The notes under the pieces: model-generated | Databases searched by the model: none | Told to the model about the DNA's origin: nothing | Seen by the model: only the letters and a program-made list of their open reading frames with translations | Shown here: piece by piece, positions 4,194 to 50,555 of the stretch | Layout of the letters: every line of letters begins with the position of its first letter | How positions within the stretch are numbered: position 1 is the stretch's first letter | NCBI GenBank assembly: GCA_021324815.1 | Contig: JAJPIJ010000006.1 | Span: 24,814 to 88,813, forward strand | Reading direction: 5' to 3' | Length of the DNA stretch: 64,000 bases | From: Gammaproteobacteria bacterium | Lineage (GTDB): Bacteria > Pseudomonadota > Gammaproteobacteria > JAJPIJ01 | Made by a program: the position numbers and the translations under genes

Positions 4194-4526
4194 CACGCAA
4201 TCAAAGATGACTTAACCGGCTACGCCCGTCATGTCGCGGACACGAAGCCGGCCTTATGGGAAGCCTACGAGAAACTTGGCCAGGCCTGTGCCGAGGCCGG
4301 CCCGCTCACCGGCGCGGCCGTTCATCAGGTCAAGCTGGCGCTCGCCATCGGCGCCGCAGGCGAGGGCGCGGTTCACAGCCATGTCCGGCGCGCGCTCGCC
4401 ACCGGGATCGAGCCGGAGGCGATCCGCCACGTAGCGTACCTTGCCGCCACGACACTCGGTTTTCTGCGCGCCGTTGCCGCCTTGACCTGGATTGAACACG
4501 TGCTGTCAGCGTCCGGTGATGATTGA
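4194..4526 (+). CDS. Carboxymuconolactone decarboxylase (CMD/AhpD-like) domain ORF, start codon unresolved
   Basis: The C-terminal ~110 aa of the 3654..4526 reading frame (…DEHAIKDDLTGYARHVADTKPALWEAYEKLG…IEPEAIRHVAYLAATTLGFLRAV…) looks like a CMD/AhpD fold. The frame is open back to 3654, but there is no ATG/GTG/TTG between nt 4005 and the domain. The domain begins right after the TorD-like stop, in a different frame. Confidence 0.35.
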   Translation, partial: HAIKDDLTGYARHVADTKPALWEAYEKLGQACAEAGPLTGAAVHQVKLALAIGAAGEGAVHSHVRRALATGIEPEAIRHVAYLAATTLGFLRAVAALTWIEHVLSASGDD

Positions 4527-4722
4527 GCTAGAGCGTGTTAACACTAACTGTTTGCCGACTCAGCGTGGCAACGTGAGCCTCTCGAATCTGCGGGTGTTGA
4601 ATGCCATTGTCATGATTCATGGCCTTCATCAACTTCGCACTCATCGCCGATGGACTGCGCGTTAGTGTGAACACGCCCTTGGTCTGGAATTATGACAGGC
4701 GTGTGAAGAAATCAGCATGCCG

Positions 4723-13299: not shown

Positions 13300-14697
13300 C
13301 TACGCACACATTCCCTTGGGAATCGTCATGGTGACGCGGCAACCGATTTCCCGCCCGCCATCCATGCGGCCGGCACCGATGGTGACGGCCCCGCCATGGA
13401 CCCGGGCGACGAGGGCCACCAGTGTGAGGCCGAGTCCCGCGCCCGTCCGGCCCCCGCCGGTCCTTGCCGGGGTTCGCGCCGCCTCCAGACGATAAAAGGG
13501 CATCAACACCCGTTCCCGCTCGGCTGGCGGGATGCCCGGCCCCTCGTCGGAAACGCTGAGCGACACGTCCGCGCCGGTGTCGGCGGCGGCCAGGATAATC
13601 CGCCCTGATCCGTATTTTGCCGCGTTCTCGATCAGGTTCCATAGCGCCCGCTTCAGCAATGCCGGATCGGCGATGAGGTGCAGCGGTTCACCCTCCGCGA
13701 CTTCCACCGCCCTGCCCGCCACCAGCGGATCATGCGCGACCTGTTCGGCGATCTGGGCGAGGAACTCCCGCACGTCGATGTCTTCAAGATTCGCCGGCAG
13801 GCCCGTTGCGTCCAGGCGCGTCGCGGTCAGCACGTCCTCCACCAGGCGATCCAGTTCCGCCAGGTCGGTCTCCACGGCGCGCAGGCGATCTTCGGCGATT
13901 TCCCGGCAGGGCAAGAGCTCGAGTGCCACGCGTATGCGCGCCAGGGGTGAGCGGATTTCGTGTGATATGTTCGCCAGCAACTGCCGCTGTCCCCGCAGCA
14001 GGGCGTCGATGCGCTCCGTCATCTGGTCGAAAGCCAGGGACAGTTGTTGCAACTCGTCCGCCTGCCACTGCGCAGGCTTCCACCACGCGGAATTCCGGCG
14101 GCGGGGAGCGGACGCGCGCCAGGTGAAGTCGCCGCGGCCGATACGCCGCGCGGCCTCGGTCAGCCGCTCCAGCGGATGGGAGATGTGCCTGGCCAGCGGC
14201 CGGGTCGCCAGCGCCACGATCAGCCACGCCAGCGTCCAGGTCAGCAGGGGCTGCGGGAGGCCGAAGAACCGCGACCGTTGGTGCGCGGACGCCTCCAGTA
14301 TTCCCAGGCGCTGACCGGAGCGGGGATCGCGGATCAGGAGCTTGACGAGCAATGCCGGCCGGGACAGCCGGATCACTTCCCCGCTCTCGATTTTTTTCAT
14401 TTCCTCGGCGGTTACCGGGGGCAGCTCCTCCCCCGCCGCGGCGAGCACGGACCCCGCGCGATCGCGCACGGTCATGTCCACGTCCAAATCATCGTGAAGT
14501 TGCCGCACCCGCAACGTCAGCGCGGCGCGGTCGTGAAAACTCTCGCCGACGAGGGAGGCCAGATGCGGCCACAGGCGCTCGGACACCTCCGTCTGGAAGG
14601 CGCTGCGGGCGCTGAGATTGAAAAGCGCGCCCGACGTGAGCGAGACGACGAGCACGATCGCGATGAAATACAGATAAATGTGGGTGTGCAAATGCAT
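13300..14697 (-). CDS. Sensor histidine kinase (two TM helices, HAMP, HisKA, HATPase_c), 465 aa
   Basis: H-box …ANISHEIRSPLARI… and N/G-box regions are present (GLGLTLV…). It follows the OmpR-type regulator gene and precedes the efflux operon. Confidence 0.85.
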   Translation of the reverse strand: MHLHTHIYLYFIAIVLVVSLTSGALFNLSARSAFQTEVSERLWPHLASLVGESFHDRAALTLRVRQLHDDLDVDMTVRDRAGSVLAAAGEELPPVTAEEMKKIESGEVIRLSRPALLVKLLIRDPRSGQRLGILEASAHQRSRFFGLPQPLLTWTLAWLIVALATRPLARHISHPLERLTEAARRIGRGDFTWRASAPRRRNSAWWKPAQWQADELQQLSLAFDQMTERIDALLRGQRQLLANISHEIRSPLARIRVALELLPCREIAEDRLRAVETDLAELDRLVEDVLTATRLDATGLPANLEDIDVREFLAQIAEQVAHDPLVAGRAVEVAEGEPLHLIADPALLKRALWNLIENAAKYGSGRIILAAADTGADVSLSVSDEGPGIPPAERERVLMPFYRLEAARTPARTGGGRTGAGLGLTLVALVARVHGGAVTIGAGRMDGGREIGCRVTMTIPKGMCA

Positions 14698-14783
14698 GAT
14701 GACCGGCTTCCGGTTCGGCGGACTACGGTGTTGCGCCGGCCCGGGCCGGCCTTGGGAGGTGGGCGACGCCCCGCGGTTTCATG

Positions 14784-15494
14784 TCAATGTGCGCCATGGC
14801 GCATGAACGCGTATCCCACGCCGCGCACCGTCTTGATGTAACGAGGCTCCCTGGGATTGGCCTCGATCTTGGCGCGCAATCTGGCGATGTACACGTCAAT
14901 CGTTCGATCGAAGACATCGCCCCCCCTCTTGAGGGCGTCGAGCAACTGGTCGCGGGAAAGCACCCGGCCGGCAGAACGCGCCAGCAGCGCCAGCAGATCG
15001 AATTCATACTGCGTCAACACCAGCCGCCGGCCGGCGAGGGACACCTCCCGCGTGTCAAGATTGACCGTCAGATCTCCGGAGGAGACGCACGCCGGCGCCG
15101 GGCTGGCGGCGCCCCCGGAGGCTCGCCGCAGCAACGCCCGCACGCGGGCCAGCAACTCGCGGGGATTGAACGGTTTGGCCAGGTAATCGTCGGCGCCCAG
15201 TTCGAGTCCAACCACCCTGTCCATGACGTCGCCCTTCGCGGTCAGCATCATGACCGGTATCGCGGCCAGTTCCGGCGTCGCCCGGATGCGGCGGCACAGT
15301 TCCAAGCCGTCCAATCCGGGCAGCATGATGTCCAGAATGACGATGTCGAATCGCTTGTTTCGCAATGTGGAGAGACTCGCCGCCGGGTCGCTGATGACGG
15401 TAAGATCGATGTCGTTCGCACCCAGATACTCCCTGGCAAGGGCGCCCAGCCGGGCGTCATCATCAACTAGAAGGACGGAGGCGCGGGATGCCAT
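14784..15494 (-). CDS. OmpR/PhoB-family response regulator (receiver domain plus winged-helix), 236 aa
   Basis: MASRASVLLVDDD…FDIVILDIMLPGLDGLELCRRIR…, with a C-terminal wHTH (…YIKTVRGVGYAF). Confidence 0.9.
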   Translation of the reverse strand: MASRASVLLVDDDARLGALAREYLGANDIDLTVISDPAASLSTLRNKRFDIVILDIMLPGLDGLELCRRIRATPELAAIPVMMLTAKGDVMDRVVGLELGADDYLAKPFNPRELLARVRALLRRASGGAASPAPACVSSGDLTVNLDTREVSLAGRRLVLTQYEFDLLALLARSAGRVLSRDQLLDALKRGGDVFDRTIDVYIARLRAKIEANPREPRYIKTVRGVGYAFMRHGAH

Positions 15495-16011: not shown

Positions 16012-16539
16012 TCAGGGGCGGGACGCGGTCTTGTTTTTGTAATTGATGGTGAAGGTGGCGAGATAAATGCCCATCACCGCGCCAACAGAGCCGAATATGA
16101 AATGGGTCAGGATGGGATAGTAGTAGCCGTGTTTGCCGAGACTGCCGGCGGTGACTTCAAACAGAACCGCCAGCGGCACGTCCAGAACCGGCTTCACCAG
16201 AAAGCTGACGCCGCCAAGAACCACGCCCTTGACAATCACCGGCAGACCTTTCGGCGTCACCTTGAACAACAAATCCAGGCAGACGCCGTTCAGCAGGTAA
16301 ATCAACGCGGGCTTGAAGTCATGCGCCAGCAGCATGAAGGACGATTGCACCAGATACGCCATGGCCGCGCCACTGCCCGTCATCAGGCCGGCCCAGGGAT
16401 TGCGGGATTGCATCCGGCCGAACAGCAGCAGCGTCATCCATTCCAAACCATGGCGCCCCGGGATGTTCAACCCGAATCGCAAATGTTGATGCAGGAGGGC
16501 GGCGGCCACGCCCAGGGTGAACAGGGCGAAGAGCGTCAA
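16012..16539 (-). CDS. Small polytopic membrane protein (~175 aa, 5-6 TM), uncharacterised; start inferred at TTG 16539
   Basis: Hydrophobic ORF. In-frame TTG at 16539 lies 9 nt after a GAGGA and 14 nt after the upstream gene stop. Other possible starts are 16602 or 16671, which would overlap the upstream gene. Last gene of the TonB-receptor cluster. Confidence 0.45.
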   Translation of the reverse strand: MTLFALFTLGVAAALLHQHLRFGLNIPGRHGLEWMTLLLFGRMQSRNPWAGLMTGSGAAMAYLVQSSFMLLAHDFKPALIYLLNGVCLDLLFKVTPKGLPVIVKGVVLGGVSFLVKPVLDVPLAVLFEVTAGSLGKHGYYYPILTHFIFGSVGAVMGIYLATFTINYKNKTASRP

Positions 16540-16552
16540 ACTGCCGTCGTCC

Positions 16553-17320
16553 TCAAGGACGTACTGATTTAATGACCGCCTTGTCCAGGACCTTGTATTC
16601 ATGCCGGGCCTCGTCGTGTTCCACCAGCAACACCGCGTGATTATCCACCCTGACCGCCCGGGGCCAGTCACCCAGGTTGATCAGCGCCGTTTCATCCTCA
16701 ATTTCCGCGCCGCCGAGCAGTGACACCTTTTCTATTCCCGCATCCCTCTTCAGATCGCTCACGGTGAGCCTCTGCCCGGCGTACTGCCGCAGCCCCCTGG
16801 GCCACAGATAGCGGCCGTCATTCCCCTGCACGTGCAGGCCGACGGCCGAAAGGGATCCAATGATCCCCTGCTGATTGCCGGTCAGACCCTCAAGCCGGAT
16901 GCCATGTTTGCGCGCCGTAGACCGTGCCTCGTCCTGCCCGACCACGTCCACCTGGGCCTTGCGACCGAAGTCGATGACATTGGACGCCTGAACGTGAGTC
17001 GCGAGGCACAGTCCGGCATCGGACCCTTCCGCCGCCGTCTCCAGCAGGAAGGCACGGCAAAAATCCATCAGTTGATCATCGTCTACGCCGTCGTGGCGCT
17101 TCACCACGAGGCAGGCGGAACTGTTGTGCGAGGTGTAAGGCACCCGGTCATCCACCAGCAATTGATGGCGGGTCACGGCAATCCCCCCCGCCAGATTGTT
17201 CTCCTGCAACCGCTCAATAAGCTGCCTCGCCCTGAATCCCGTGCCCCGGGTTTCCAGGTTGTCCGTGTCGTCAATGCCTATATAGGTCAGGTCATTGCTC
17301 AATGGGATCAGCCGCTTCAT
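16553..17320 (-). CDS. Uncharacterised soluble protein (256 aa) with N-terminal motif YIGIDDTDN…TRGTGF
   Basis: Internal ATG at 17320 gives MKRLIPLSNDLTYIGIDDTD…. The listed 17485 start would overlap the receptor gene 3' end. No signal peptide or TM helix. Sits between the TonB-dependent receptor gene and the small membrane protein gene. Confidence 0.5.
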   Translation of the reverse strand: MKRLIPLSNDLTYIGIDDTDNLETRGTGFRARQLIERLQENNLAGGIAVTRHQLLVDDRVPYTSHNSSACLVVKRHDGVDDDQLMDFCRAFLLETAAEGSDAGLCLATHVQASNVIDFGRKAQVDVVGQDEARSTARKHGIRLEGLTGNQQGIIGSLSAVGLHVQGNDGRYLWPRGLRQYAGQRLTVSDLKRDAGIEKVSLLGGAEIEDETALINLGDWPRAVRVDNHAVLLVEHDEARHEYKVLDKAVIKSVRP

Positions 17321-21743: not shown

Positions 21744-22790
21744 ATGCGGGCGGCGGGAAAAGAGGGAATTCTATTGTCCGCAGTCACTGCTGCCCCAATA
21801 ATCACGCCGGGTGACCGTCTGGGTCTCACCCTCTGCCTGGCCTTACTTCTTCACGCGATGTTTGTGTTTGGCATCGCCTTCAAGCCGTCGGGCAAGGCCA
21901 CGCGCTACAACATGATGGAAATCGTGCTGGTGCAGAGCCGCTCCGATGTGCCGCCCGTGGACGCCGAACGGCTGGCGCAGGCCAATCATGTCGGCGGCGG
22001 GGAGTCGGAGGAAAACACCCGTCCGGCCACGCCGTTTCACGCCGTGCTGCCCGCGGCCTTCGGGCCGCTGCCGCCCGCGGCCGCGGCGCCCGCGCCCGCC
22101 ATCAATCCATCGGCCGGCAGCGCCGCCCCGCCGACACCGCCCCCGCCATCCGCATCCACCGACGTCCATAAGCTCGCGGCGGAGACGCCAGCATCGCCTG
22201 CCGCGGCGCCGCCAAGGGCGAAGATCAGGCCGGATAGAAGGATCGAAAAGGTGGTTCCGAAAAAAATCCCCCGGGATGCCGAGCAGAAAAGCCCGCCGCC
22301 GAAAACGCAGGCCGTTGCCCAAACACCGCCGCCCGCGCCGGTGCCGACGGCGGCAACCCTGGTGGCGAGGAGTTTCGCCATCGCCAGCCTCGATGCGGAG
22401 ATCGAGGAGCGCGAAAATGCCATTGCCAAGCGGCCGCGGCGCAAGTTCATCTCCGCCAGCACCCGCGAGTACAAATATGCCGCCTATATGGAGGCGTGGC
22501 GCGCCAAGGTCGAACGCGTGGGTAATCTCAATTATCCGGATGAGGCACGCCGCAAAAAACTTTCCGGCAGCCTCATCCTCGATGTCGCTCTGAACTCCGA
22601 CGGTTCCATCAACGAGATCACCATCCGGCGTCCCTCCGGCCAGCCCGTGCTGGACGACGCCGCGGTCCGCATCGTCAAAATGGCGGCGCCTTACGCGCCT
22701 TTCCCCGAGGATTTCGTCAAGGAGGTCGACATCCTGCACATCACCCGCACCTGGCAGTTCCAGAGCAGCGAACGTTTTGCCGCGCAATGA
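21744..22790 (+). CDS. tonB: TonB-family energy transducer (N-terminal TM helix, Pro/Ala-rich spacer, C-terminal TonB domain)
   Basis: Pro-rich central region (PPPAPVPTAAT…) and conserved C-terminal TonB domain (…YPDEARRKKLSGSLILDVALNSDGSINEITIRRPSGQPVLDDAAVRIVK…). Start is ATG 21744; an alternative is TTG 21714. Confidence 0.75.
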   Translation: MRAAGKEGILLSAVTAAPIITPGDRLGLTLCLALLLHAMFVFGIAFKPSGKATRYNMMEIVLVQSRSDVPPVDAERLAQANHVGGGESEENTRPATPFHAVLPAAFGPLPPAAAAPAPAINPSAGSAAPPTPPPPSASTDVHKLAAETPASPAAAPPRAKIRPDRRIEKVVPKKIPRDAEQKSPPPKTQAVAQTPPPAPVPTAATLVARSFAIASLDAEIEERENAIAKRPRRKFISASTREYKYAAYMEAWRAKVERVGNLNYPDEARRKKLSGSLILDVALNSDGSINEITIRRPSGQPVLDDAAVRIVKMAAPYAPFPEDFVKEVDILHITRTWQFQSSERFAAQ

Positions 22791-22946
22791 AGCCCGCGCG
22801 GCGCAAAACAGCCGGAAAGCGCGCTCATGGCGGGAATGAAGGGGACTGCCGACCATGAAACGCCGGGTTGGCGTAAATGTCCAAAAAGGAACGACCAACT
22901 CTCCGGCGGCTTGAGAATTATCGATTTCGCGCCGATACTTGATTTT

Positions 22947-48155: not shown

Positions 48156-49031
48156 ATGCGATCGATGATGTTTTGCCTGCTGGGTCTGGTTTCCTTCGCC
48201 GCGAGCGCGGCGGAATGGAGCGTGGAGAAGCTCTGGGAGACGGAGGCGGTGTTCAAGAATCCGGAATCCGCGCTCAACGATGGCCAGCGCGGCGTCATTT
48301 ACGTCTCCAACGTCAACGGCGACGCCAACGCCAAGGACGGCAACGGCTTCATCTCGCGCCTGTCGCCGGACGGCCGTGTGCTCGAGCTGCAATGGGTGAC
48401 GGGCCTCGACGGCCCCAAGGGGCTGGGCCGCGTCGGCAACAAACTCTATGCCGCCGATATCGACACGCTGGTCGAGATCGACATCAGGCGGGGGAAGATC
48501 ATCCACCGTTACGAGGCCGCCGGCGCGAAATTCCTGAACGACGTCGCCACCAGCCGCGGGGGCGACGTGTACGTCTCCGACATGGTGGCGGACAGGATCT
48601 ACCGCCTGCATGACGGCAAGCTGGAGGTGTGGTTGGAATCACCGGCGCTGGAGAATCCCAACGGCCTGCACGTCGCCGGCGGACGCATGATCGAGGGCGC
48701 CTGGGGCGTCATGTCGGGCGGCGGCTTTGCCACGCCCGTCCCCGGCCATGTCAAGGTGATCTCCATGCAAGACAAGTCCATACAGGATTTCGGCGGCAGC
48801 CAGCCCATCGGCAACATGGACGGCATCGAGCTGCTGCCCGACGGGCAGGTGCTGGCCACCGACTGGATGGCGGGCAAGCTCATGACCGTGGCGCCGGACG
48901 GGAGGGTCAGTGTGCTGGCCACCCTGCACCAGGGCACGGCCGACATTGGCTACATGAGCAGAAAGAAAATCGTTCTGCTGCCGATGATGATGGACGGCAC
49001 CGTCATCGCCTATCAATTGAGATCGCGATAA
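48156..49031 (+). CDS. Secreted beta-propeller-like protein (SMP-30/gluconolactonase/LRE-like repeats), function unknown
   Basis: ATG 48156 with CAAGGAGAA RBS. Signal peptide MRSMMFCLLGLVSFAASAA. Repeated …YVSN/YVSD…G… blades. Confidence 0.5.
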   Translation: MRSMMFCLLGLVSFAASAAEWSVEKLWETEAVFKNPESALNDGQRGVIYVSNVNGDANAKDGNGFISRLSPDGRVLELQWVTGLDGPKGLGRVGNKLYAADIDTLVEIDIRRGKIIHRYEAAGAKFLNDVATSRGGDVYVSDMVADRIYRLHDGKLEVWLESPALENPNGLHVAGGRMIEGAWGVMSGGGFATPVPGHVKVISMQDKSIQDFGGSQPIGNMDGIELLPDGQVLATDWMAGKLMTVAPDGRVSVLATLHQGTADIGYMSRKKIVLLPMMMDGTVIAYQLRSR

Positions 49032-49040
49032 GCGTCGGCG

Positions 49041-49403
49041 ATGGCTGATTACGACAACACCGGCTTCGGCACGCAGTACTCGGATAAATCATTCTGGGAC
49101 ACGCTCAAGGCCTATGCGCTTGCCGCGGGGCGCGATGTCATCGAGAAGGCGCTGATTCTTTACTACACGGCGCGCAGTCCGGCCACGCCCGCGTGGGCCA
49201 AGGCCGCCATCTACGCCGCGCTGGGATATTTCGTCAGCCTGATCGACGCCATCCCTGATCTGACGCCGATCATCGGTTACGCCGATGATCTCGGCGTGCT
49301 GGTCGCGGCAATCGCCACGGTCGCCTCCACCATCACACCGGAGATCCGTGAGCAGGCGGCGCAGAAACTTCAGGAATGGTTCGAGACCCCGCCCGCGTCC
49401 TGA
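49041..49403 (+). CDS. YkvA/DUF1232-family small membrane protein
   Basis: …LIDAIPDLTPIIGYADDLGVLVAAI… is the DUF1232 signature. Confidence 0.55.
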   Translation: MADYDNTGFGTQYSDKSFWDTLKAYALAAGRDVIEKALILYYTARSPATPAWAKAAIYAALGYFVSLIDAIPDLTPIIGYADDLGVLVAAIATVASTITPEIREQAAQKLQEWFETPPAS

Positions 49404-49410
49404 TAGAATC

Positions 49411-49561
49411 CGCAGAAACGCGCCCGTAGCTCAGCTGGGTGAGCCGGAGAAGAAAACGCTCCGGTGGAGCGTTTTCCCGGCGAACGCCCGGTCAGGGATG
49501 ACCGGGCCGGGTAGTCGCTCCACGGATTGGATGAGATCGCAAACGTTGCCAGCGCAGAAAC
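49411..49561 (+). repeat. 28-bp perfect direct repeat (cgcagaaacGCGCCCGTAGCTCAGCTGG, copies at 49411-49438 and 49553-49580) bracketing a 114-nt highly structured insert; the upstream copy is a truncated tRNA-Arg 5' fragment
   Basis: Read directly from the sequence. The repeat spans 9 nt of tRNA-Arg 5' flank plus the first 19 nt of the tRNA. The insert contains the hairpin AAAACGCTCC-ggt-GGAGCGTTTT and a second hairpin CCCGGTCA-ggga-TGACCGGG. Confidence 0.6.
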
Positions 49562-49638
49562 GCGCCCGTAGCTCAGCTGGATAGAGTACCCGGCTTCGAA
49601 CCGGGTGGTCGGGGGTTCGACTCCCTCCGGGCGCGCCA
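49562..49638 (+). tRNA. tRNA-Arg (anticodon TCG)
   Basis: GCGCCCGTAGCTCAGCTGGATAGAGTACCCGGCTTCGAACCGGGTGGTCGGGGGTTCGACTCCCTCCGGGCGCGCCA. Cloverleaf with anticodon loop CTTCGAA. Close to E. coli argV apart from the anticodon. Confidence 0.85.
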
Positions 49639-49670
49639 TTCTGTTTCATCACGGGAATCGCGAAACCGCA

Positions 49671-50447
49671 TCAATGCGAACCGGAGCGGCCCGCACGTTG
49701 TGGAAAAATCATGATGCAGGCGAGCATGAAAAGAAGAAGAGCGATGGATGCGGAATAACGGCTTAATGCGAGCCCTCCAGAACCGACCGGTTTGTCGAGA
49801 AAGTCGCCGACAACCGCGCCCAGAGGTCTGGTCAGAATGAACGCCGTCCAGAAAAGCGTCGTACGCGAGAGGGATGTCCAATAGCGGGCCGCGACCACAA
49901 AACCCAGCAGGGTGCTGAATACAACCGCGCCACCTTCGTAGCCAAGCCCGGCGGTATCCGCGGTCCAATCGCCCAGCGCGGTGCCCAGTGTCTGGGAAAA
50001 CATGATGGTGACCCAATAAAATATTTCGGCTTTTGGAGTGCTCACTGTGTCGACGGATATGGAACCCAGTGTGCGGTGCCAAAGAAGCAGGGACATCATC
50101 AGCATGACGAGCAACAGCGAGGAACCGCCCGCGTAGCCTATGCCCAGAGATCGGTCCGCGAAATCAGCGAGTGTGGTTCCAACGGTTGTCGTGGCAATGA
50201 TGGTGGTCCAGTAAAGGAATGGATGAAACCGCCTGGCCATGATCTGCGCAAACACGGAAGCGAGGAAGATGACGGAAAAAATGGCCGTGCCTACGAGATA
50301 GCCCAGATTCATGGACATCGATACGGCGTCGCCGCCGGTTTCACCCAGGGTCGTTGCCGCGATTTTGATAATCCAAAAAATGAGCGTCACCTCGGGGACC
50401 TTGCTCAAATTTTTTTCCATCGAGTTCCTCGCTTCGGGTTCTGTCAT
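49671..50447 (-). CDS. Polytopic membrane protein built from three internal repeats (COG4705-like 'membrane-anchored protein'), lower GC than its surroundings
   Basis: Repeats …TLIFWIIKIAATTLGETGGDAVS…, …EIFYWVTIMFSQTLGTALGDWTAD…, …TLFWTAFILTRPLGAVVGDFLDK…. Candidate starts at 50447, 50420 and 50498. GC content is visibly lower (~55%). Confidence 0.5.
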   Translation of the reverse strand: MTEPEARNSMEKNLSKVPEVTLIFWIIKIAATTLGETGGDAVSMSMNLGYLVGTAIFSVIFLASVFAQIMARRFHPFLYWTTIIATTTVGTTLADFADRSLGIGYAGGSSLLLVMLMMSLLLWHRTLGSISVDTVSTPKAEIFYWVTIMFSQTLGTALGDWTADTAGLGYEGGAVVFSTLLGFVVAARYWTSLSRTTLFWTAFILTRPLGAVVGDFLDKPVGSGGLALSRYSASIALLLFMLACIMIFPQRAGRSGSH

Positions 50448-50555
50448 GTCATTTCCTGCGTCTTCGGATGACGCATTGCCGGACGGCAAGTTCCCCAAAG
50501 GGAGGGGACTTTCTCCGCGCCGTGCTGCACAGCGTGCTCACGCCGCCGGTGCGGC

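Follow-up and report, generated by a model that had tools for sequence, protein, structure and literature searches.

The tRNA-Arg(TCG) Locus and Its Repeated 5′ End

The window considered here (the whole 64-kb stretch of gammaproteobacterial DNA that was analysed) carries, between a DUF1232 gene and a gene for a DUF347 membrane protein, an intact tRNA-Arg(TCG) gene preceded by a displaced fragment of its own 5′ end. Fragment and gene share an exact 28-bp direct repeat, CGCAGAAACGCGCCCGTAGCTCAGCTGG, whose two copies are spaced 142 nt apart and each consist of 9 nt of leader followed by tRNA nucleotides 1–19. The first copy ends in the displaced fragment, here called the stub; the second runs on into the intact gene, which is recognized by ARAGORN and by the Rfam tRNA model (66.7 bits). 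Between the copies lies a 114-nt insert (49439–49552), made up of a palindrome, H1, and a second module, S. The inserted block is 142 bp long, comprising H1, S, the 9-nt leader and tRNA nucleotides 1–19, and is read as entering after G19 of the D-loop. The locus can be described as an insertion allele, 142 bp long and polymorphic, of a chromosomal tRNA-Arg(UCG) gene, lying at its 5′ end. The 19-nt tRNA part of the repeat occurs twice in the window, with zero occurrences expected by chance. The D-stem of the stub is completed by the first bases of the insert (GCTC agctgggt GAGC).

An initial annotation, made from the letters of the window, had described a duplicated tRNA-Arg 5′ fragment around a 114-nt structured insert, and had named an assembly artefact as one thing that would undo that description. 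The description is upheld by the exactness of the repeat and by its recurrence. The repeat and insert are exact in all ten independent metagenome assemblies (from ENA, Logan, NCBI and JGI), eight of which are identical over the whole 267-nt intergenic region. An artefact or a collapsed repeat could be entertained in that the sources are short-read metagenome assemblies and one Logan contig of the type found in a related species, L021, breaks within the repeat. But the ten assemblies come from different samples and pipelines and give the same structure, the 28-bp repeat is far below the k-mer length of 141 (read from the "k141_" contig names), and a diverged but homologous arrangement is present in L021. 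We therefore consider an artefact scarcely conceivable. It is possible that several identical units have been collapsed into one in the assemblies.

Relatives with No, One or Two Units

Four species-level lineages that share synteny at the locus were compared: the window and three congeners, L019, L021 and L029. Their protein identities, about 78–91%, make the four roughly equidistant, and the two carriers of the insert are no clear sisters. L019 and L029 are empty sites, reading TAGAAT, a 13-nt leader and then the tRNA, which bears out the earlier view of the block as an insertion relative to close relatives. The copy number is thus zero in L019 and L029, one in the window and two in L021; an identical arrangement conserved across the clade, which had been set down as grounds for giving up that view, is not what is seen. 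As far as the data go, the feature is restricted to one poorly sampled lineage.

In L021, the homologous insert forms two tandem units, evident as a direct repeat of about 100 nt at a spacing of 146 nt. From the promoter side the array runs: a decayed stub by the native promoter, a palindrome called HX, a first S copy (S1), a stub with one mismatch, an H1-type hairpin, a second S copy (S2) and the intact tRNA. The array is identical in a second assembly, and a third (the Logan contig) breaks inside the repeat. The middle stub with its element-type leader is identical to the gene copy at 30 of 31 positions, whereas S1 and S2 agree at 52 of 67 (Fisher p = 0.018). The apparent ages of the fragments would fit serial addition of units or continuing homogenization at the repeats. 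The 12-nt leader in L021 differs from the native leader of its genome; the window's second leader matches its native one at nine of nine positions.

The tRNA itself shows a further difference among the four: anticodon-stem pair 28–42 (49588–49604) is C-G in the window and T-A in all three relatives, a compensatory change.

Table 1. Coordinates of the features discussed. Positions are those of the window unless another record is named.
Feature	Position	Strand	Remarks
DUF1232 (YkvA-family) gene	49041–49403	+	Upstream neighbour; syntenic also in L019, L021 and L029
Promoter-like site	49381–49409	+	Promoter scan; TCGAGA, 17-nt spacer, TAGAAT; the TG of the extended −10 overlaps the DUF1232 stop codon; directly upstream of stub
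Direct repeat, copy 1	49411–49438	+	Exact repeat; leader 49411–49419 and displaced tRNA stub 49420–49438
H1, 47-nt REP-like palindromic element	49439–49485		Outer stem 49443–49447/49477–49481; inner 11-bp stem 49452–49462/49466–49476; loop GGT
S module, 67 nt, unique	49486–49552		H2 hairpin, conserved block, non-conserved tail
H2 hairpin, GCCCGGTCA-GGGA-TGACCGGGC	49486–49507		9-bp stem, GGGA tetraloop
Conserved block GGCCGGGTaGTcGCTCCAcGGATtGGATG of S	49505–49533		Two ANGGA-type motifs (GGA at 49524–49526 and 49529–49531)
Direct repeat, copy 2	49553–49580	+	Exact repeat; 9-nt leader and tRNA nucleotides 1–19; regenerates the intact gene
Intact tRNA-Arg(TCG)	49562–49638	+	ARAGORN, Rfam
DUF347 membrane protein gene	49671–50420	−	Lower GC; in the variable slot between tRNA and panC
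Slot downstream of tRNA, window	49639–50555		DUF347
Slot downstream of tRNA, L019	4841–5500		Methyltransferase
Slot downstream of tRNA, L021	5035–6491		472-aa protein
Slot downstream of tRNA, L029	503–1344		RDD-family protein
HX palindrome	L021 4686–4736		Unit 1 of the array
H1-family copies	L036 1497–1550; L037 1497–1550; L039 1201–1254; L042 1190–1243; L040, L041, L043; L049–L056

Fold of the Insert

The insert is strongly structured, with a predicted fold of −54.6 kcal/mol (z = −4.0 on the plus strand and −4.1 on the minus strand). Its minimum free energy structure consists of two independent hairpins: H1, whose outer stem GCCGG/CCGGC surrounds a perfect inner stem of 11 bp, and H2. The hairpins described earlier cannot all be nested at once: CCGGAG…CTCCGG and the hairpin AAAACGCTCC/GGAGCGTTTT share CTCC, and TGGAGCG…CGCTCCA, which had been taken as the closing helix, competes for the 3′ arm of that same hairpin. 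Because the same bases are reused, the additional pairings are alternatives.

H1, a Dispersed Palindrome

Judged by sequence comparison, the insert is a mosaic of H1, a dispersed palindrome of 47 nt, and S, a unique module of 67 nt. When the insert was compared with plasmids by blastn, it was matched over its first 45 nt only, at 80–89% identity, on replicons of Paracoccus, Rhodobacter, Cereibacter, Rhodovulum and Leisingera, and a pattern scan found more copies on IMG/VR contigs. The family has elements of about 48 nt, with the consensus RTGAGSCGG..CAGAAAACGATCCGGKGGATCGTTTTCCCGSCGAAYG, in at least 10 unrelated contexts on Rhodobacterales plasmids and viral contigs.

Several copies lie inside transposase genes, at two positions in IS256-type and two in rve-type genes. 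Relative to uninterrupted homologues, the element adds a net 42 nt in frame, placing SEAGQKTIQWIVFPP between HPW and NGQVER, and GEADQKTIRGIVFPL between TIKE and NVKRFHY; two rve-type genes with such a 42-nt in-frame element encode ..QKTI(R/Q)(G/W)IVFP... One mapped insertion adds 43 nt and causes a frameshift. In these genes 4–7 nt are replaced and no clear duplication is left. The proposal that the 28-bp repeat is a target-site duplication of the transposase type thus finds no support, as H1-family insertions elsewhere lack a long duplication. All three mapped transposase-gene insertions stand directly after GGA, and the other left junctions mostly follow GG(A). In the window, H1 follows CTGG of the tRNA D-loop, where the intact gene reads CTGGA.

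In an alignment of nine copies, with those of the window and L021 included, 96.5% of the cells are paired and 8 of the 16 pairs show double changes, values reached by none of 500 shuffles. Five compensatory pairs differ between H1 of the window and that of L021. Taken together, the comparisons show H1 to belong to a dispersed palindrome family that is evidently mobile. Miniature inverted-repeat transposable elements (MITEs) have terminal inverted repeats and a target-site duplication that is short and constant; H1, by comparison, is a single long, imperfect palindrome. The suggestion of a small mobile element survives for the H1 part, but not for the whole insert as a single MITE, the insert being a mosaic of H1 and the unique S.

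No further copy of H1, H2 or the stub was found in the 64-kb window, and a look for strong hairpin families there gave none either. A literature search with the H1-family sequence string returned no relevant description, only irrelevant primers.

The palindrome of the first L021 unit, HX (CCCTCTCCCtgtGGGAGAGGG..GGGGTGAGGG), is a widespread repeat of its own, present in 118 plasmid records at 85–99% identity, in Klebsiella, Escherichia, Enterobacter, Azospirillum and Aeromonas. A side observation concerns the viral contig L054, in which positions 1700–1870 hold the H1 inner stem (GAAAACGCTCC agt GGAGCGTTTTC) and are very rich in GGA motifs (AAGGA, CAGGGA twice, ACAGGA); this region may be coding sequence.

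S, a Module with a Conserved Core

Two homologous copies of S were found, both in L021. With a covariance model of S, the window and the remaining fetched loci yielded nothing further, and no homologue was found in plasmids, phages or viral contigs. Scans of large collections with the conserved block gave only coding matches in Dactylosporangium among genome contigs and only chance coding matches among metagenome contigs; viral contigs gave no matches. The absence of S from these collections is weak evidence, since contigs known to carry it also went unreturned.

Conservation within S is uneven. Between the window and L021, the block GGCCGGGTnGTnGCTCCAnGGATnGGATG is identical at 22 of 26 positions (85%, with the S2 copy), H2 at 15 of 23 and the stub at 20 of 20, while the S tail with the leader agrees at 9 of 30, the random level. 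The H2 loop CAGGGA is invariant in all three S copies, and H2 shows one compensatory change between the window and L021. Three GGA motifs stand at homologous positions in all three copies, and eight of the nine fit ANGGA. The pattern of identities shows what appears to be purifying conservation of the 26-nt block.

An H2-like match in Pseudomonas aeruginosa (L044) lies in frame in cdiA-related coding sequence beside Y1-transposase genes and was judged to be due to chance. That 24-kb record, annotated as a plasmid, holds a contact-dependent inhibition (CDI) orphan toxin/immunity array and three copies of a 230-aa Y1 (IS200-like) transposase (14239–14931, 16538–17230 and 22170–22862).

Could S be what is left of a second tRNA? 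The locus may have held an ancestral tandem pair of tRNA-Arg genes, the upstream copy of which was killed by an H1-type palindrome landing at the D-loop GGA, with S representing its decayed 3′ part and a spacer. The junctions of H1-family insertions, after GGA in the mapped transposase genes and mostly after GG elsewhere, agree with the CTGGA of the D-loop. Stub and S add up to 86 nt, near the 77 nt of a tRNA plus a short spacer. The anticodon stem of the window tRNA, CCCGG/CCGGG, occurs also in H2, and CCGGGTAGTCG resembles the CCGGGTGGTCG of the tRNA. Yet the insert is not significantly similar to the remainder of the tRNA on either strand (p = 0.27 and 0.15), the T-arm leaves no trace, and neither the Rfam tRNA model at E ≤ 10 nor ARAGORN, even when relaxed and with H1 removed, finds a tRNA in the upstream units. 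Moreover, the stub is intact at 19 of 19 positions while the supposed 3′ part is unrecognizable, an asymmetry greater than neutral decay would be expected to give, and no segment of a tRNA resembles the part of S that is conserved best. On balance, we regard a dead tRNA as an unlikely origin. The same tests led to the rejection of two related sources for the insert, a tRNA 3′ half that has diverged and a tRNA copy in inverted orientation, and they detected no cloverleaf, such as a tRNA-like leader would have, in the upstream unit.

Probable Transcription of the tRNA Through the Insert

A promoter scan of 49000–50000 gave a single promoter-like match, directly upstream of the stub, and nothing was called inside the insert or S of the window or in the units of L021. 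In all four congeners TGaTAGAAT is conserved, at a distance of 10–13 nt upstream of the first tRNA-type sequence. The tRNA is thus probably transcribed through the insert from this upstream promoter. The position of this lone promoter-like signal, before the stub, makes co-transcription of the insert with the tRNA plausible, as had been envisaged. In appearance H1 is a bidirectional terminator, with the better U-tract on the minus strand.

In a predicted fold of the whole precursor (49415–49640), the tRNA's 3′ end pairs with the acceptor strand of the stub and not with that of the gene itself, and two quasi-palindromic AGCTCAGCTGG segments pair with each other. The stub could, by this modelling, compete with correct folding of the tRNA. 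It may also be mentioned that 49506–49522 is 82% complementary to tRNA positions 49578–49594, with 12 of 17 positions kept in L021 (a hand count); the complementarity is equally explained by likeness to the 3′ strand of the anticodon stem.

The insert may have been kept for a functional small RNA (sRNA) or a cis-acting leader, whichever way it originated. In one version, the product would be a plus-strand ANGGA RNA, a binding module of the CsrA/RsmA type freed from the tRNA precursor; in another, it would be a minus-strand RNA bearing UCC(C) loops and ending at H1. The three ANGGA motifs at homologous positions in three S copies, the 85% conservation of the block beside a tail at 30% and the compensatory changes (those in H1 and the one in H2) all point this way. 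The GGGA tetraloop of H2, closed by A-U and C-G, matches the CsrA SELEX hairpin, RUACARGGAUGU. A scan of 49404–49561 on both strands against Rfam 15, a check that had been proposed at the outset, found no family at the gathering score. The plus strand came closest to RsmW, and the minus strand to anti-hemB, ftsZ-DE and sX13 (14–17 bits against thresholds of about 50–72). These weak resemblances are of the kinds that the two versions would call for, RsmW being an sRNA of the Csr/Rsm type (Rfam CL00106), but they are far under threshold (14–15 bits against 52 for RsmW). Nor is GGA clearly enriched, with five in 114 nt against about two to three expected (a hand estimate from base composition). 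Two close relatives manage without the insert, the G-U versus C-A cells leave the strand undecided, and DNA-level processes can keep a palindrome symmetrical without selection on RNA. We would call retention for an RNA function unlikely, though it does not exclude the explanation favoured below.

Genomic Setting

The genes run trpD, trpC, a 291-aa beta-propeller-like protein, DUF1232, the stub, insert and tRNA-Arg, DUF347 (minus strand), panC, panB and dNK. Judged by homologues of the 291-aa protein, the organism falls in an uncultured gammaproteobacterial lineage known from metagenome-assembled genomes (MAGs) only. The distant homologues of this protein and of DUF1232 are neither syntenic nor accompanied by a tRNA. 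The site had been described as flanked by lower-GC membrane-protein and DUF1232 genes, as in a small islet. Both genes do flank it, but DUF347 alone is lower in GC (0.54–0.58 against about 0.62–0.72), and DUF1232 is a conserved syntenic core gene rather than islet cargo; only the slot downstream of the tRNA varies. In L021, a premature stop (cgtgctTAAgcg) shortens DUF1232 (4293–4607) to 104 aa; the other three lineages have 120 aa.

The downstream slot is filled by four different genes in the four congeners: DUF347, a methyltransferase, an unknown 472-aa protein and, in L029, with other downstream surroundings, an RDD-family gene. The slot shows no displaced tRNA 3′ fragment. The closest DUF347 homologue of the L021 MAG (84% identical) is on another contig (L012), between a pterin-binding gene and pqq genes. 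Homologues of DUF347 are found in unrelated contexts, and the gene is useless as an anchor of synteny. The variable slot, the lower GC of DUF347 and its scattered homologues, the one elsewhere in the L021 MAG included, might be taken to mean that a conventional integrase-borne island once sat at the tRNA, leaving DUF347 as surviving cargo. We find this very improbable: no tRNA 3′ fragment lies anywhere in the window, the repeats enclose only the upstream 114-nt insert and not DUF347, the interval holds no integrase, and the insert is equally small in two species.

How the Insertion May Have Arisen

The explanation that we favour, tentatively and at somewhat less than even confidence, is a small block, foreign or relocated and without an integrase, which brings along a tRNA 5′ end, regenerates the gene it enters, and is gained, lost and amplified by recombination at its tRNA-derived repeats. 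A tRNA 5′ end of its own closes the block, which keeps the downstream gene intact and strands the original 5′ part, as a stub, beside the native promoter. Entry would have occurred by recombination of the tRNA gene with DNA already bearing a tRNA 5′ segment, either catalysed in trans or as illegitimate recombination anchored by homology. Later on, recombination or slippage between the direct repeats derived from the tRNA would remove units precisely or multiply them, loss giving the empty sites and tandem gain the L021 array, hence zero, one or two copies. Palindromes would colonize the slot between stub and S, H1 doing so in the window and in unit 2 of L021, and HX in unit 1. Transcription from the native extended −10 promoter would give a tRNA precursor of about 230 nt, with part of the transcription perhaps ending at H1. 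Cleavage of the precursor by RNase P would then yield a structured 5′ leader, about 150 nt long, with or without a function of its own.

Several points weigh against this explanation. The repeats enclose no integrase or other recombinase, nor was one identified nearby, the window beyond not having been annotated for such genes. The 114-nt interval is far below any known island, and the D-loop is absent from the crossover sublocations of the Islander paper (PMC4383910). The identity of the second leader of the window with the native one is more like an event in situ, or gene conversion, than an imported attachment (att) site. A second copy of S was found nowhere beyond the homologous inserts, which tells against mobility of the whole block, if weakly, the large scans having missed known carriers. 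S is known from three sequences in two species, so the argument from selection draws on few data, and the RNA-level steps, transcription and processing alike, are inferred.

The initial annotation had offered a list of candidates, which pointed in the right direction, although no single item was right as stated. An integrase acting at the tRNA 5′ half, one of these, finds no support, as the repeats enclose no integrase and a D-loop end is not among the crossovers listed by Islander. CRISPR-like, dif/Xer, attC and casposon readings were set aside because spacer length, sequence and duplication length do not fit.

A bolder version of the preferred block can be imagined, though we hold it to be quite improbable. 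A recombinase-less mini-cassette (tRNA nucleotides 1–19, palindrome slot, S and leader) would home to the D-loop region of tRNA-Arg, rebuild the 5′ end of the gene and ride in the precursor as a mobile sRNA gene. Its product would be an ANGGA RNA, freed by RNase P, that binds a regulator of the CsrA type, or else a minus-strand anti-Shine-Dalgarno RNA.

Implications

If the block is a mobile or recombination-driven cassette, the logic of a regenerated tRNA gene (tDNA) plus a displaced fragment would reach down to the scale of about 100 nt, on the 5′ side and with a D-loop end. Such mini-insertions could be common and go unseen because island finders discard them by filters on length, integrase and sublocation. 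If S has a function as RNA, that would make it an sRNA whose expression depends on riding along in a tRNA precursor. Should neither be the case, the insertion would be a harmless structural polymorphism that probably lowers or complicates the expression of a non-essential tRNA. The H1 family matters in its own right, as it spans Rhodobacterales plasmids, viral contigs and an uncultured gammaproteobacterium and inserts in frame into transposase genes. The importance of the locus would rise sharply if S proved to be an expressed RNA that binds a regulator, or if further copies showed that the block is mobile.

Comparison with Known Systems

Cis-mobilizable elements (CIMEs) are att-flanked, integrase-less derivatives of integrative elements, kilobases long and found beside or derived from identifiable ICEs. 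The present block resembles them as a short stretch between att-like direct repeats that come from the target gene, without a recombinase and with tandem arrays with related elements possible. It differs in the 114-nt size of its insert and in having no known parent element.

On the RNA side, the relevant systems are the Csr/Rsm-type sponge sRNAs and the sRNAs derived from tRNA precursors, such as 3′ETS-leuZ. S resembles the sponges in its ANGGA motifs, which stand in a hairpin loop and in unpaired sequence next to it, and its putative RNA would, like that of the leuZ type, come from tRNA processing. Unlike the sponges, S has three motifs only, too few to place it with confidence, no Rfam membership, and neither a Gac-type promoter nor a terminator of its own.

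The REP and REPIN palindromes, whose super-families bear GTAG or CGTC tags, and the RPEs of Rickettsia are closer in form to H1, REPs and RPEs being sometimes inserted in frame in protein genes (PMC3733652). H1 is likewise a GC-rich palindrome of about 47 nt with conserved unpaired ends and covariation in its stems, and its family is dispersed in many contexts, some of them in frame in protein genes. It departs from REPs and REPINs in its ends, RTGAG...CGAAY, which carry neither tag. REPs and REPINs come in many copies per genome, often as dimers, with a RAYT gene alongside. No association with RAYTs was seen for H1, which has one copy in the window and belongs to a family that is multi-copy across Rhodobacterales plasmids. 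H1 accounts for 47 of the 142 inserted bases and does not explain the tRNA duplication.

Islands at tDNAs provide the other parallel. For Islander, the interval must hold an integrase and measure 2–200 kb, and the crossover must fall within the anticodon loop, T-loop or T/acceptor junction; displaced 5′ tDNA fragments are rare there, in 159 of 3919 islands (PMC4383910). Tested on four of the Islander criteria, the locus fails three. The interval is 114 nt against at least 2 kb, a tyrosine integrase gene is impossible between the repeats because no such open reading frame fits in 114 nt, and the fragment ends at tRNA position 19, in the D-loop, rather than at a listed site. The identity block also includes 9 nt of native leader. 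The fourth is the arrangement itself, which is found here as in the islands: an intact tRNA gene with a cognate end fragment in the same orientation, the 5′ fragment being upstream. As in the islands, too, the inserted DNA supplies the part it replaces, so that the gene is regenerated, and tandem arrays occur. In closing, the feature joins known kinds, the tDNA fragment signature and the REP-like palindromes, in a new variant form.

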